Assembly: GCA_052168235.1 (NCBI GenBank)
Contig: JBQLZK010000078.1
Span: 1 to 26,108 of the forward strand
Origin: Thainema sp.
GTDB taxonomy: Bacteria; Cyanobacteriota; Cyanobacteriia; Phormidesmidales; Phormidesmidaceae
Direction: 5' to 3'
DNA length: 26,108 bases
This document shows positions 8,661-11,372 of the stretch, in pieces. Below the pieces are notes generated by a model, which did not search any database, was not told where the DNA came from, and saw only the letters and a list, made by a program, of their open reading frames with translations. A program made the position numbers and the translations under genes. Numbering within the stretch: the stretch's first letter is position 1; the number at the start of each line of letters is the position of its first letter.

Positions 8661-8693
8661 TTTTACACCAACTGATGTTTTACACCAACTGAT
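8661..8693 (+). repeat. 16-bp direct repeat TTTTACACCAACTGAT x2 spanning the ABC ATPase stop codon
   Basis: Identical copies at 8661-8676 and 8678-8693. Confidence 0.85.
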
Positions 8694-9420
8694 ATAGCGC
8701 CTGAATCATCTCCGAGGACACCGACTCAGATGGCGCATCAAAGACAATTTCGCCTTGCCGAAGACCAACCATCCGCTGGCAGTGGCTAAAGGCAAATTCA
8801 ATGTCGTGCAGGCTGATAACCAGCGTTTTATTTGTGGTTTCGCACAGATGACGCAGCAAATCCATCAGATCCCGCGATCGTTCTGGGTCAAGACTGGCGA
8901 TCGGCTCATCGGCCAAAATAATTGCCGGATCTTGGACGAGTACTCGCGCCAGCGCCACCCGCTGCTGCTGACCACCGGAAAGCTGATCGGTGCGAGCATA
9001 GAGCTTTTCCGGAATACCCACCTGGGCCAGTGCGTGACTGGCTGTTTTCACATTTAACGGTCGAATCAGCGACCAGGCCGCCTGCCCAATCGACCAGCGG
9101 CCCAAATTTCCAGCGTTGACGTTGTGGATCACCCGCAGATTCGGCACCAGATGATGCTGTTGATAAATCGTGCCAATCTGCCGCTGCAGCCGTCGCCGCT
9201 GCTGTCCAGTCGCCACCGAAAACGCCTGACCAAACGCCCACACTTCGCCCGCAGTCGGACATAGCGAACCATTCATCAAGCTCAGCAAGGTACTTTTCCC
9301 CGCCCCACTGGAACCAACCAAGGCGACTCGCTCTCCCGGCTGGATCGTTAAATTAATATCCGATAGCGCTTGAAAATCACCAAATCGCTGCTGAATATTC
9401 TGGAGCTGCAAAATTGGCAT
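8680..9420 (-). CDS. phnC: PhnC-like ABC transporter ATP-binding protein (phosphonate/phosphite/selenate-type family); no permease or binding protein in window
   Basis: Walker A GSSGAGKST, LSGGQQQRVALAR, ILADEPIASLDP, SLHD; starts 1 bp after the aroF stop. Confidence 0.8.
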   Translation of the reverse strand: MPILQLQNIQQRFGDFQALSDINLTIQPGERVALVGSSGAGKSTLLSLMNGSLCPTAGEVWAFGQAFSVATGQQRRRLQRQIGTIYQQHHLVPNLRVIHNVNAGNLGRWSIGQAAWSLIRPLNVKTASHALAQVGIPEKLYARTDQLSGGQQQRVALARVLVQDPAIILADEPIASLDPERSRDLMDLLRHLCETTNKTLVISLHDIEFAFSHCQRMVGLRQGEIVFDAPSESVSSEMIQALYQLV

Positions 9421-9421
9421 T

Positions 9422-10279
9422 CTAACTCACCTTCGATAACTGCCGCTGCGGCACCGCATGAATCGGTACCCGTCGTCCCACTGCCTGAGCCACGGGCACC
9501 AAACTCTGCACCAGCTCCACCATCTCGTCTAGCGATAGCGCCTGCCGCGCATCGGAAACGGACTTCTCGGGTTCCGGATGACATTCAATTAGTAAACCAT
9601 CTGCTCCAGCTGCGATCGCGGCTCGTGACAAACCCGCTACTAACTCCCGCTTGCCTGCCGCATGGCTGGGATCAACCAGTACGGGCAAGTGTGTTAACTG
9701 CTTCAGCGCCACCACTGCGCCTAAATCCAGCACGTTACGAGTGAATGAGTCGAAGCTGCGAATGCCCCGCTCACACAGCACAACCTGGCTGTTGCCGTGG
9801 CTGAGGATATATTCTGCCGCCATCACGAATTCTTCAATCGTGGCAGCCAGTCCCCGCTTCAGCAAAACGGGCTTGTTTGCTTGACCGACCGCTTTTAGCA
9901 AATCGAAATTCTGCATATTGCGGCTACCGATTTGCAGCATGTCCGCACTATCTGCGATCGCATCAATCTGCGAAATCGCCATCACTTCAGTGATCACGGG
10001 TAAACCGTAGGTTTTGCTCACCTGGGCCAAAATATCGAGTCCGGTTTGGCCTAGACCCTGGAACGAGTAGGGCGACGTGCGCGGTTTGAATGCACCACCA
10101 CGCAGTGCCTGCACCGATCCGGTCAGATGATGCGCCACCGCTTCCATTTGCTCCAGATTTTCGACGGTACAGGGGCCACCGACAATGAATAGATCCTGGT
10201 CGCCAATCGTGGCTCCGGGCAGCGTGACGACGGTTTCGTGATCGGCGTGGGATTTAGAGGCGAGTTCAGCGTGAACCAT
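9422..10279 (-). CDS. aroF: 3-deoxy-7-phosphoheptulonate (DAHP) synthase, class I-beta, short form without N-terminal regulatory domain
   Basis: GGPCTVE, RGGAFKPRTSPYSFQG, QIGSRNMQNF, LLKRG, CERGIR, DPSHAAG; SD AGGAG 7 nt upstream of the ATG. Confidence 0.95.
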   Translation of the reverse strand: MVHAELASKSHADHETVVTLPGATIGDQDLFIVGGPCTVENLEQMEAVAHHLTGSVQALRGGAFKPRTSPYSFQGLGQTGLDILAQVSKTYGLPVITEVMAISQIDAIADSADMLQIGSRNMQNFDLLKAVGQANKPVLLKRGLAATIEEFVMAAEYILSHGNSQVVLCERGIRSFDSFTRNVLDLGAVVALKQLTHLPVLVDPSHAAGKRELVAGLSRAAIAAGADGLLIECHPEPEKSVSDARQALSLDEMVELVQSLVPVAQAVGRRVPIHAVPQRQLSKVS

Positions 10280-10286
10280 TGTATTT

Positions 10287-10291
10287 CTCCT
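10287..10291 (-). promoter_or_regulatory. Shine-Dalgarno sequence of aroF
   Basis: Minus strand reads CT-AGGAG-AAATACA-ATG. Confidence 0.75.
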
Positions 10292-10336
10292 AGTTTCCTG
10301 ATACTTGGGCGTTATAACTTGGGCGTTTGCGTAATT

Positions 10337-10366
10337 AAAAAGCCCGCCACCTTAGAGGCACCGGGC
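10337..10366 (-). terminator. Attenuator terminator 2 (proximal to aroF)
   Basis: Minus strand GCCCG-GTGCC-TCTAA-GGTGG-CGGGC-TTTTT: 5-bp GC base stem, imperfect upper stem, U5 tract. Confidence 0.65.
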
Positions 10367-10389
10367 AGAGGTCGAGAATTGTCGCACCA

Positions 10390-10455
10390 TCAACTTACCC
10401 GGAGGATTGGCCGGAAAAAATAAAAGCTATAAAACCATCGAGCGCTGGCAATCAT
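10390..10455 (-). CDS. Aromatic-rich leader peptide 2, MIASARWFYSFYFFRPILRVS (21 aa)
   Basis: ATG ATT GCC AGC GCT CGA TGG TTT TAT AGC TTT TAT TTT TTC CGG CCA ATC CTC CGG GTA AGT TGA; 7 aromatic codons within 8 positions; followed by antiterminator and terminator. Confidence 0.75.
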   Translation of the reverse strand: MIASARWFYSFYFFRPILRVS

Positions 10456-10517
10456 AACGGGTAGGTTGAGGGTGACTGTTGATGTTGACAATTGAATAAC
10501 GAGTGAAAATGAGCAAT

Positions 10518-10546
10518 AAAAAAACCGCAGAGCCTTGTCTGCGGTT
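10518..10546 (-). terminator. Attenuator terminator 1 (distal)
   Basis: Minus strand AACCGCAGA-CAAGGC-TCTGCGGTT-TTTTT: perfect 9-bp stem running into a U7 tract. Confidence 0.85.
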
Positions 10547-10574
10547 CACTGAAAGTTTCCATCACAACGTGGAT

Positions 10575-10628
10575 TCACTTCCAGTGAACCTTGATAAACC
10601 AAAAATAAAAGCTTGAGCTGTATAGCAT
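10575..10628 (-). CDS. Aromatic-rich leader peptide 1, MLYSSSFYFWFIKVHWK (17 aa)
   Basis: ATG CTA TAC AGC TCA AGC TTT TAT TTT TGG TTT ATC AAG GTT CAC TGG AAG TGA; five consecutive aromatic codons FYFWF; its 3' end is the 5' arm of a 14-bp antiterminator. Confidence 0.8.
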   Translation of the reverse strand: MLYSSSFYFWFIKVHWK

Positions 10629-10684
10629 GGCTTGAAGCTGCCGGGAGTCCCGGTCGCGTGTTGTGAATGGATTTCTATTTGTCA

Positions 10685-10713
10685 ACGCTAACAGGGGAAA
10701 ATCCTGCCGTCAA
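10685..10713 (-). promoter_or_regulatory. Predicted sigma70-type promoter for the leader-aroF-phnC transcript
   Basis: TTGACG (-35; 10713-10708), 17-nt spacer ending TGT (extended -10), TAGCGT (-10; 10690-10685); predicted TSS near 10678. Confidence 0.6.
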
Positions 10714-10782
10714 GTACCTATTCGGGTGATGGGGCCAAAATCACGCCCAAAGGTCATCAAATCTAGTTTTTTATACACCACT

Positions 10783-10810
10783 GTAGGGGCGAATGGCCAT
10801 TCGCCCCTAC
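10783..10810. repeat. GTAG-type REP-like perfect palindrome
   Basis: GTAGGGGCGAATGG-CCATTCGCCCCTAC, 28-bp perfect inverted repeat 25 bp downstream of the ridA stop. Confidence 0.8.
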
Positions 10811-10835
10811 GGAATCTGCATTGATGACAAAAGTG

Positions 10836-11231
10836 TTAATTAGAAATCACCGCAATACACTCAATCTCGACTAGAACATCTTTGGGCAAACGCGCCACCT
10901 CTACGCAGGCGCGAGCGGGAGCCTGTTCATCACCAAAATGCTCTGCGTAGACGGCATTCATCGCCGCAAAGTCGTTCATATCCTTCAAGAACACACTGGT
11001 TTTCACCACGTCGTCGAGACTTGCTCCGGCTGCGTTCAAGATGGCCGTCAAATTTGCGATCGCTTGCTGCGTTTGCTGCTGAATATCCCCTTCGCCCACA
11101 ATTGTGTTCGTCACTGGATCTAAGGGAATCTGCCCCGCCACAAACAGCATCTGACCGGAAGCTGCGATCGCTTGATTGTATGGCCCCACCGGAGCCGGAG
11201 CCTGATCGGTTCGAATGACATGACGTGACAT
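10836..11231 (-). CDS. ridA: RidA/YjgF/UK114 family reactive-intermediate deaminase (ATG 11231 preferred to the ORF-track start 11246)
   Basis: [47 protein letters not shown]. Confidence 0.92.
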
Positions 11232-11282
11232 TAATCTATTCCTCACCCAAATTACTCGTGCATCGCTAAATCACGTAACCAG

Positions 11283-11372
11283 TAGACTTTATTGGAAATT
11301 GTTTTGTAGCGCGGCGGAGCCGCGCTACAAAACAATTTCCAACCCCAAAAACTTTATTTCCAATAAAGTCTA
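11283..11372. mobile_element. Putative 90-bp MITE / small dispersed repeat with 17-bp terminal inverted repeats and an internal 24-bp perfect hairpin
   Basis: TAGACTTTATTGGAAAT (11283-11299) / ATTTCCAATAAAGTCTA (11356-11372); inner arms 11292-11315 and 11319-11342 with GGA loop; begins and ends with TA. Confidence 0.65.

Follow-up and report, generated by a model that had tools for sequence, protein, structure and literature searches.

Probable tandem ribosome-mediated attenuators upstream of the short-form DAHP synthase gene in cyanobacteria

The leader of the short-form DAHP synthase gene (aroF) in the cyanobacterium Thainema sp. probably carries two ribosome-mediated transcription attenuators in series, which would sense the charging of the Phe-, Tyr- and Trp-tRNAs. 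On the minus strand of the 26,108-nucleotide stretch of DNA that we analysed (hereafter the window), we observed, in this order, a predicted promoter, leader ORF1, terminator 1, leader ORF2, terminator 2 and the gene for a 285-aa DAHP synthase. A first-pass annotation, made from the letters of the window, had placed the promoter, the two leader ORFs, the two terminators and the Shine-Dalgarno sequence and ATG of aroF, and our reading agrees with it to the base. Its interpretation of the arrangement as ribosome-mediated attenuators is supported by the matching anatomy, by conservation with covariation and by confinement to one form of DAHP synthase.

We propose that a ribosome would translate each of the 17- to 21-codon ORFs, which have a central run of Phe, Tyr and Trp codons. 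With all three charged tRNAs plentiful, it would reach the stop codon and mask the antiterminator strand, the terminator would form and transcription would end; with any one aromatic aminoacyl-tRNA scarce, it would stall upstream on the aromatic codons, the antiterminator would form first and RNA polymerase would read on. A transcript would have to pass both gates to reach aroF. Because the gates stand in series, we propose that read-through approximates the values of the two multiplied together; basal expression would then be low and the response steeper. That the leaders are translated, that the hairpins terminate transcription, that read-through responds to tRNA charging and that the gates multiply we infer from sequence, and the sharpening of the response by two attenuators, an idea of the first-pass annotation, would follow on the same footing.

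The predicted sigma-70-type promoter (10685..10713, minus strand, as are all features below; read from the sequence) comprises TTGACG at 10713-10708, a 17-nt spacer and TAGCGT at 10690-10685. A consensus scan did not call it, because its -10 hexamer matches at just three of six positions; 74 of the 79 orthologous leaders, however, have TTGACN-N16-18-TANNNT at the same place upstream of their ORF1. The first leader ORF, ORF1 (MLYSSSFYFWFIKVHWK and a stop codon), occupies 10575..10628 (ATG at 10628, stop ending at 10575), and seven of its 17 codons are aromatic (Y3, F7, Y8, F9, W10, F11 and W16). Its 3' end, GGUUCACUGGAAGU (10590-10577, extending into the UGA stop as far as its U), forms 14 bp with 10556-10543 when the RNA is folded, and the resulting hairpin, antiterminator 1 (10543..10590), shares the GAACC of its 3' strand with the 5' arm of terminator 1. 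The latter (10518..10547), found by a consensus terminator scan, is an intrinsic terminator with a 10-bp stem (five G-C pairs) at 10547-10522, the loop CAAGGC and seven U residues, the T-run lying at 10524-10518 with its first three T's closing the stem; its pattern is unique in the genome.

The second module repeats this layout. Leader ORF2, MIASARWFYSFYFFRPILRVS plus stop, runs over 10390..10455 (ATG at 10455, stop ending at 10390) and has seven aromatic codons among its 21 (W7, F8, Y9, F11, Y12, F13 and F14), so that our codon reading agrees with the earlier statement that each leader carries seven such codons covering Phe, Tyr and Trp. Folding gives two alternative pairings for regions 1 and 2 of the module (10396..10415): going by the window sequence alone, UCCGG (10415-10411) may pair locally with CCGGG (10402-10398), and CCGGGUA (10402-10396) can pair with UGCCCGG (10367-10361) in the 5' arm of terminator 2. 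This antiterminator 2 is 7 bp long in the window, including one G-U pair, and is weaker than its counterpart in module 1; the claim that the 3' end of each ORF can pair with the 5' arm of its terminator is thus correct for both modules. Intrinsic terminator 2, GCCCGGUGCC...GGUGGCGGGC followed by UUUUU, was recognised by its fold at 10337..10367, where the U at 10367 belongs to the antiterminator; the hairpin itself spans 10366-10342 (5+5 pairs in RNAfold) and is followed by TTTTT at 10341-10337. The consensus scan overlooks it because of an internal mismatch. Beyond it, read from the sequence, the Shine-Dalgarno AGGAG (10287..10291) lies 7 nt 5' of the ATG at 10279, and the gene, assigned by NCBIfam and Pfam to 3-deoxy-7-phosphoheptulonate synthase (DAHP synthase) of the type I-beta short form, 285 aa, extends over 9422..10279.

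Across the 7.54-Mb genome, both strands together, there are 128 ATG-initiated ORFs of 10-30 codons with at least seven aromatic codons, an expectation of about 0.0025 for every 300 nt on a single strand. A pair of such ORFs at a distance of 173 nt, directly 5' of a DAHP synthase gene, lies far outside what chance would produce, and the question is settled by the comparative sequence data described below.

From cyanobacterial genomes we fetched 80 orthologous loci, of which 78 include at least 300 nt of upstream sequence (L034 and L060 are too short). Conservation of the short ORFs in orthologous leaders had been named in the first-pass annotation as a check on its proposal, and both ORFs, both terminators and the antiterminator pairings are kept, with covariation: all 78 loci contain both aromatic ORFs, both terminators and the terminator-1 core, counting L077, whose second ORF and variant second terminator escaped the automatic pattern; the ORF was taken from a separate analysis and the terminator was read from the sequence. 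The orthologues carry on average 6.5 aromatic codons in ORF1 and 8.1 in ORF2, and the full set of F, Y and W occurs in 76 of the 79 ORF1s and 76 of the 78 ORF2s. The core of ORF1, Y-F-Y-F-W-F/Y, keeps its aromatic identity despite synonymous TAT/TAC changes, and that of ORF2, W-F/Y-Y-x-F-Y-F-W, is likewise conserved. Tyr positions of the cores mix TAT and TAC freely (37/29, 34/26 and 49/17), replacements within the cores are mostly to other aromatic residues, and Trp is invariant at the anchor position. The aromatic core is therefore under codon-level constraint. No conserved gene neighbourhood extends beyond the leader and its gene in 14 representative loci.

The helices are conserved as well. 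In alignment A1, antiterminator 1 is paired in 96.8% of cells, with compensatory changes at five of its ten pairs (49 cells), values that none of 500 shuffles attained. Terminator 1 is paired in 99.7% of cells over 78 distinct sequences. In alignment A2, the end of ORF2 pairs with the 5' arm of terminator 2 in 94.3% of cells (antiterminator 2; three of nine pairs compensatory), and terminator 2 itself is paired in 98% (three of nine pairs compensatory, 32 cells). When the register was slid as a control, pairing fell to 12-63% for all four helices.

That the RNA helices carry the strongest conservation is what one would expect if the hairpins formed a switch like a riboswitch or TRAP, under the control of a ligand or a protein, next to incidental, untranslated ORFs; the leader ATGs of the window, moreover, have no clear Shine-Dalgarno sequence ahead of them in our reading, and some orthologous ORF2s lack an ATG, using GTG or, in one genome (G002), having neither ATG nor GTG in frame. 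We consider such a switch very unlikely, since the aromatic core is kept as codons, through the TAT/TAC changes and aromatic replacements described above, and not as structure, and the reading frames and stop codons are fixed relative to the antiterminator strand. The U-rich core also lies in no conserved helix, and no Rfam family matches: a search of window positions 9800-11300 gave no leader family at E-values up to 10; the window, L001, L003 and L103 gave no match at gathering level; and at E-values up to 1 the sole row of leader type for L012 (2000-2520) was the rnk leader of Pseudomonas, which scored 19.6 bits where the gathering threshold is 55. Rows for miRNA models fall on a 28-nt palindrome at 10783-10810, and we rejected them as sub-threshold chance matches.

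The ends of the ORFs bear on a further alternative, in which the leaders would sense free aromatic amino acids by arrest of the nascent peptide, comparable to TnaC, with ligand-induced stalling at the stop codon keeping the ribosome on the antiterminator strand and enforcing termination. ORF2 does close with a W-P-R-x-S-S-G-stop that is conserved, 68 of 73 sequences having the Pro, and the stop codon adjoins the antiterminator strand. This C-terminal peptide is lost, however, where the nucleotides stay: in the window the end of ORF2 is frameshifted relative to the consensus ...WPRxSSG and reads RPILRVS in the other frame, yet the nucleotides CCUCCGGGUAA are retained, and L001, L064 and L080 end in ...HPG or ...IPG. 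The C-terminus of ORF1 varies too (VHRE, VRPE, VHLG, VHWK), exactly at the stretch where the helix covaries. The ORF ends are thus constrained as RNA, not as peptide, and stretches with seven to eight aromatic codons characterise tRNA-charging sensors; we therefore regard peptide arrest as very unlikely and retain attenuation governed by tRNA charging as the preferred reading.

Modelling of ribosome occupancy on the window sequence of module 1 gave the antiterminator with the ribosome stalled at Y3-F9, a shortened antiterminator at W10, and the full terminator once the ribosome stood at F11, W16 or the stop codon. Among the orthologues, at least one modelled stall state breaks terminator 1 in 72 of 78 distinct sequences. 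Untranslated RNA of module 1 folds into the antiterminator in 62 of the 78, and there is no protector (1:2) hairpin. In E. coli trpL such a protector 1:2 hairpin exists, so that untranslated RNA terminates; the default state of untranslated module 1 is opposite to it. For module 2 the stop state yields the full terminator in all 76 orthologous sequences, of which 75 also have the terminator in the free RNA. A stall state disrupts terminator 2 at equilibrium in 47 of the 76 and none does so in 29, and in the window the terminator persists in the minimum-free-energy fold at six of seven modelled stall positions. Because the equilibrium folds of module 2 so often keep the terminator, the case for this module rests on the conserved pairing and on a kinetic argument: antitermination would need co-transcriptional kinetics wherever the terminator wins at equilibrium.

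The homologous locus L103:400-1900 is covered in 20 RNA-library runs from seven studies. A single contig spans both terminators into the gene in three of the four runs examined, and may include DNA carried over into the libraries. All 24 RNA runs were available as assembled contigs rather than raw reads, a form blind to 3' ends and to transcript levels. In two runs contigs end in the leader or just upstream of it, at L103:1431 and L103:1647, with 1648-1740 uncovered; as ends of assembled contigs, these cannot be taken for transcript ends.

The closest known systems, as far as the published accounts drawn on here describe them, are aroR-aroF of C. glutamicum and the tandem attenuators of Salmonella mgtCBR. 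In the former, according to a review (PMC11802643) summarising Neshat et al. (2014), the stalling of ribosomes under Phe limitation increases transcription. As here, the leader contains a small ORF with aromatic codons (in C. glutamicum Phe-Tyr-Phe), there upstream of the operon that includes the DAHP synthase gene; unlike here, the leader is single, the phylum is another, Tyr supply is without effect and the review's account names no Trp codon (PMC11802643). Our comparison is one of layout, and the cyanobacterial locus differs in having two serial leaders, each with 6-8 aromatic codons that cover Phe, Tyr and Trp. Both trpL and pheL of E. coli, as outlined in the same review, share with it a leader ORF rich in codons for the product of the pathway, an antiterminator hairpin and a terminator hairpin that exclude each other, and a decision made by ribosome position, but each answers to one amino acid and each operon has one attenuator (PMC11802643). 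The leader of mgtCBR contains tandem attenuators, with the ORFs mgtM and mgtP (Lee and Groisman 2012, PMC3641672). In that account each of the two ORFs has a signal of its own, ATP or proline-charged tRNA, and the signals act additively (PMC3641672), whereas here the same three kinds of codon occur in both ORFs, with a separate canonical intrinsic terminator after each. A further likeness, by description, is uORFC-13-1 of Acholeplasma, a predicted Phe-codon uORF beside an intrinsic terminator and located only upstream of aroF; as reported, it is a prediction from Acholeplasma and environmental DNA only, it is single, and at least one of its Phe codons derives from a U-run (Brewer et al. 2021, PMC8632094). 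Full-text literature searches returned no report of leader-peptide attenuation in cyanobacteria. The first-pass annotation had called the arrangement unusual, which holds as far as our searches reach; a single aromatic aroF leader is known in Corynebacterium and tandem attenuators in Salmonella mgtCBR.

The proposed mechanism needs ribosomes close behind RNA polymerase, and the conserved element would thus offer a direct handle on transcription-translation coupling in cyanobacteria. We know of no study that has established or examined in cyanobacteria the ribosome-RNA polymerase coupling that the model requires. If the two-stage gate exists as we describe it, it would be the first regulatory use of such coupling in the phylum and a test bed for how ribosomes follow polymerase, and two attenuators reading the same signal in series would be a simple natural route to less leakiness and a steeper response. 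A crude scan of the same genome for other leader peptides, which took ATG-initiated short ORFs with four of seven identical or five of seven aromatic residues followed by a hairpin and T-run, returned 161 rows; of the five that looked most promising, with runs of Cys, His, Thr and, in two cases, Trp, three lie inside long ORFs in another frame and two have no nearby downstream gene on the same strand.

The enzyme under this putative control is a bare catalytic barrel of the type I-beta short form, without an N-terminal ferredoxin-like or chorismate-mutase domain. Among NCBIfam models it matches NF006421 with 397 bits and TIGR01361 with 359 bits, its best solved relatives are DAHP synthases, and Pfam finds PF00793 only, with no PF18152 regulatory domain. 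Short archaeal forms of DAHP synthase are not known to be regulated. From the missing domain we conclude that the short-form enzyme is probably insensitive to feedback, and we read the leader as supplying end-product control because the protein has no N-terminal ferredoxin-like allosteric domain, the domain through which Phe or Tyr act on the Thermotoga maritima enzyme in the account we draw on (PMC5526877). Long forms of 351-352 aa occur in all four representatives of other cyanobacterial families, and PF18152 was present in both long forms scanned with Pfam (L111 and L112); it occupies residues 1-67 in the long forms of other cyanobacterial families and of non-photosynthetic relatives. None of the four representatives has an aromatic short ORF within 600 nt upstream of its long-form gene. 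The genome studied here encodes three DAHP synthases, the short form, a long form and one of AroFGH type, and inspection by eye of the sequence upstream of the latter two revealed no leader of this type. With two further isozymes in the genome, aromatic supply need not depend on the short-form gene. Under the control of its leader, the short-form enzyme would be a starvation-inducible isozyme, probably feedback-insensitive. RNA-level control tied to a missing allosteric domain would explain why some cyanobacteria keep an extra DAHP synthase, and in the engineering of aromatic compounds in cyanobacteria the cassette could serve as a biosensor of aromatic tRNA charging and as a source of a probable feedback-insensitive entry enzyme.

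In a sample of 401 genomes from the phylum, 64 contain a short-form orthologue, and every one of these has at least one module. A strict module-1 pattern occurs once each in 53 of the 64, in none of the 337 other genomes and not at all in a reversed-pattern control; of the 11 short-form genomes that it misses, nine carry variant sequences of both modules and two carry module 2 only. The device is thus exclusive to short-form DAHP synthase in the sampled genomes.

This distribution bears on whether each ORF-terminator unit is a gene in its own right, encoding a small hydrophobic peptide or a trans-acting small RNA, that merely neighbours aroF. A strong terminator in each unit would be expected to give short, stable transcripts, and attenuated leader transcripts that act in trans are known elsewhere, as with the rnTrpL RNA of Sinorhizobium. 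We give this explanation very little credence: in the sampled genomes the units stand only directly upstream of the short-form gene and on its strand while the other neighbours differ, a single promoter-like site precedes ORF1 and inspection by eye noted none between the modules, and a role in trans would add to attenuation in cis rather than replace it.

Returning to the serial attenuators, we can picture, at somewhat less than even odds, an allosterically blind isozyme whose sole end-product control is a two-stage gate for three amino acids, read by ribosomes, of which the proximal module is the older and the distal one was added later for a multiplicative, switch-like response. The gene-proximal module 2 is the sole module in the two genomes with a single one. 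Reciprocal nhmmer profiles of the two modules match one another at 7-13 bits (E-values of 2e-4 to 1e-2), centred on the aromatic codons, a similarity for which shared codons could suffice.

Among non-photosynthetic relatives, the 25 long-form loci of one family (f34) show no short ORF resembling either leader. A few F/Y-rich ORFs with a TTG or GTG start were seen at these loci. In five representatives of other non-photosynthetic families, four have no leader and one (G100) has a single leader. The YFYGFYF core of the gene-proximal module recurs, in a non-photosynthetic relative, ahead of a chorismate mutase-DAHP synthase operon, which is the ground for picturing that module as the older.

The leader of the DAHP synthase gene aroF holds two genuine and conserved leader-peptide attenuators, and its anatomy, together with covariation among orthologous sequences, makes attenuation a well-supported, though predicted, mechanism. 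The minus-strand sequence was re-read, and the coordinates and counts of the first-pass annotation all hold. The leader region is bounded upstream by a Rid-family gene (11246-10836, minus strand) and contains, all on the minus strand, a predicted promoter (TTGACG-17-TAGCGT, 10713-10685), the first leader ORF (ORF1, MLYSSSFYFWFIKVHWK, 10628-10575), terminator 1 (hairpin and U-run, 10547-10518, located independently by a consensus scan), the second leader ORF (ORF2, MIASARWFYSFYFFRPILRVS, 10455-10390) and terminator 2 (hairpin and U-run, 10366-10337), which has an internal mismatch and was seen on folding only. An AGGAG then precedes the ATG (10279) of a 285-aa ORF, a type I-β DAHP synthase (NF006421, 397 bits; TIGR01361, 359 bits; PF00793). 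The entire leader folds better than 100 of 100 shuffles (z = -2.9). Genome-wide (15 Mb, both strands counted), 128 ORFs of 10-30 codons start with ATG and contain seven or more aromatic codons; a pair separated by 173 nt in front of aroF is not a matter of chance.

Conservation of the short ORFs and of covarying stems had been set beforehand as the check on this reading. A scan for orthologues, one genome per species, yielded 80 cyanobacterial loci whose enzymes are 70-76% identical and whose record titles include Nostoc, Microcoleus, Leptolyngbya, Oculatella, Floridaenema and others; two have less than 110 nt of upstream sequence, so leader counts rest on the other 78. All 78 keep both terminators (the terminator-1 core likewise in 78/78) and homologues of both ORF1 (consensus M..NSYFYFWFrVVHRE) and ORF2 (consensus MTYFSSWFYGFYFWPRxSSG), a few of these ORFs starting with GTG, and the antiterminator helices covary. 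At one locus (L077) the second ORF was found and the second terminator is a variant, seen in the sequence itself. In 74 of 79 sequences a promoter-like TTGACN-N16-18-TANNNT lies upstream of ORF1, and the end of the -10 element usually lies 45-48 nt from the ORF1 ATG (56 nt in the window). No neighbour beyond the leader and its gene is conserved in 14 representative loci, and the two behave as a self-contained cassette. One contig titled as an Actinomycetota MAG (L005) has the double leader in its cyanobacterial form, together with an enzyme of 75% identity, and is probably a mis-binned cyanobacterial contig.

The first-pass annotation had proposed that the 3' end of each leader ORF can pair with the 5' arm of its terminator, and this pairing is kept in both modules (78 distinct rows aligned for module 1, ORF1 with terminator 1, and 76 for module 2, ORF2 with terminator 2). 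In module 1 the ORF1 end that extends into the stop codon, GGUUCACnnnGrGU, forms a helix with CnnnGUGAACC, and the final five bases of the latter begin the 5' arm of terminator 1. This antiterminator is 96.8% paired with compensatory changes in five of ten pairs, for example A-U to G-C in 16 rows, or another pair that is GC in 50, CG in 15 and UA in 6; shifting the register by one to three columns leaves 19-52% paired. Terminator 1 itself is nearly invariant (99.7% paired, three single compensatory changes). In module 2 the last codons of ORF2 (AGUUCCGGG, immediately 5' of UAA) are identical in sequence to the 3' arm of terminator 2, so that both compete for the 5' arm (CCCGGAACU); the ORF2-end pairing is 94.3% kept, with three of nine pairs compensatory, and for terminator 2 the figures are 98% and 32 compensatory cells. 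The ORF C-termini vary exactly at the covarying helix positions, and the end of ORF2 in the window differs in frame from the consensus yet keeps CCUCCGGGUAA, so the 3' parts of both ORFs are constrained as RNA. The aromatic cores, judging by the alignments, are constrained as codons: TAT and TAC are freely interchanged at Tyr positions, substitutions are mostly to other aromatic residues, and the anchoring Trp is present in every row that could be anchored. Core Phe codons in the two alignments are UUU in 71/72, 73/73, 65/68 and 69/73, against 66% UUU in the long ORFs of the genome, and a Pro codon follows the last Trp of ORF2 (CCC in 62/73).

To model a stalled ribosome, we masked the transcript as far as 12 nt beyond the first nucleotide of the codon in the A site. 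For module 1 of the window, stalls from Y3 to F9 are predicted to form a 14-bp antiterminator, with the terminator reduced to 5 bp at a distance from the U-run; an A-site W10 shortens the antiterminator, and F11, W16 or the stop codon in that site gives the full 10-bp terminator in the model. Of the module 1 orthologues, 72 of 78 have one or more aromatic stall states in which the modelled terminator is disrupted. For module 2, the full terminator is predicted at the stop state in 76/76 orthologues, and equilibrium folding shows it displaced by a stall state in only 47/76. Module 2 of the window shows predicted displacement at only one of seven stall positions (F11), where a 7-bp CCGGGUA:UGCCCGG helix competes with a local UCCGG:CCGGG hairpin. 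Given this weak displacement at equilibrium, module 2 probably relies on the sequence in which its structures fold as transcription proceeds. The modelled default also differs between modules: untranslated module 1 adopts the antiterminator fold in 62/78, and untranslated module 2 keeps the terminator in 75/76.

The homologous stretch of one orthologous locus (L103:400-1900) is present in 20 RNA-library runs from seven studies, all stored as assembled contigs; four of these runs were compared with it. In three, one contig begins upstream of the ORF1 ATG, or at most 36 nt from it, and extends across both terminators into the gene; the contig of the fourth begins within ORF2. Leader and gene are thus covered and bridged in RNA libraries, which speaks to coverage only, not to transcript ends, levels or DNA-free RNA.

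Which form of the enzyme is under this control was examined in a phylum sample of 401 genomes. At an orthologue cut-off of E up to 1e-95, 64 of them encode an orthologue, with identities of 67% or more and open frames spanning about 270-360 codons. A strict module-1 pattern matched once in each of 53 genomes, all among these 64, and had no match in the other 337; a reversed control pattern had none in the whole sample. Thirty pattern loci were fetched, and the 29 in which the gene is present all have both short ORFs and a 267-295-aa enzyme, module 2 in pattern-positive genomes being counted in fetched loci only (23 unfetched genomes left out). All 11 orthologue-positive, pattern-negative genomes were fetched, and nine carry both modules as sequence variants, one of them (G002) with an ORF2 that has no in-frame ATG or GTG. 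Two single-module genomes, G089 (L144, MAIATQTFFYGFYFWHGNSSG) and G228 (L146, MIPSQNWFYSFYFTWQPQRFRLN), have the short-form enzyme with module 2 only, behind a promoter-like site, and are natural single-attenuator comparators. From the 53 matches and the 11 fetched misses, one module or both accompany the short form in every sampled genome that has it.

Representatives of four other cyanobacterial families have a 351-352-aa form (about 51% identity) with mutually alignable N-termini; the PF18152 ferredoxin-like domain was found in both of those scanned with Pfam (two of the four), and no aromatic short ORF lies within 600 nt upstream of any of the four. A fifth representative, which has a small genome, gave only a match of 35% identity. 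In Thermotoga maritima DAHP synthase the ferredoxin-like domain is the site of Phe or Tyr inhibition, according to PMC5526877. The window's own genome (G000) has three DAHP synthases, namely the short form, an AroFGH-type I-α enzyme (TIGR00034, 513 bits; G000:C8:42980-43864, L152) and a long I-β enzyme with the ferredoxin-like domain (NF009933, 705 bits; G000:C4:108146-108874, L153), and no type II enzyme was found in it. No aromatic leader was seen by eye before the latter two genes, so the attenuators control an extra isozyme without the allosteric domain. We infer that this short-form isozyme is induced by starvation; it may also be insensitive to feedback.

Among non-photosynthetic relatives, 25 loci of one family have the long-form enzyme and no comparable leader was seen; four of five representatives of other such families showed none. 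In G100 (L160:610-1300) a single leader, MPARCTYFYGFYFGARIATER, stands behind TTGACG-17-TAGGGT and is followed by a strong terminator, a chorismate mutase-like ORF, which we take from its sequence to be of the AroH type, and a long-form DAHP synthase. Its YFYGFYF core is that of the cyanobacterial ORF2, and this match and the two single-module cyanobacteria suggest, from few cases, that the gene-proximal module 2 is older than the distal one.

The leader has no family match in Rfam, and the full-text literature searched, outside which most subscription journals lie, yielded no account of cyanobacterial control by leader-peptide attenuation. The element would work like the closest known cases: E. 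coli trpL and pheL; C. glutamicum aroR-aroF, with one Phe-Tyr-Phe leader (PMC11802643) where there are two here; a predicted uORF motif of Acholeplasma aroF (PMC8632094); and, closest in its tandem arrangement, the mgtCBR leader of Salmonella, in which each of the two ORFs senses a signal of its own (PMC3641672), whereas both attenuators here would sense the same one. It differs from them in that two complete same-signal attenuators, each covering Phe, Tyr and Trp, occur in a new phylum and are linked to an isozyme without the allosteric domain.

Downstream, an ABC-transporter ATPase gene (8680-9420, minus strand; its top hit, to the phosphonate PhnC model, scores 252 bits and misses the cut-off of 266) starts 1 nt past the DAHP synthase stop codon and is probably co-transcribed with it, which would place it behind these attenuators too; it is not a conserved neighbour across the 14 other loci compared. 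A perfect 28-nt palindrome without a U-run (GTAGGGGCGAATGG/CCATTCGCCCCTAC, 10783-10810) lies downstream of the Rid-family gene, ahead of the aroF promoter, and may be a terminator-like or repeat element; it gave rise to spurious sub-threshold miRNA rows in Rfam. Elsewhere in the genome, contigs C1, C16, C74 and C112 share a long palindrome, CCGGGGGAGCGC(C/T)CCTCCGGGGCGCTCCCCCGG with a T-run after it, which looks like a dispersed repeat shaped like a terminator.
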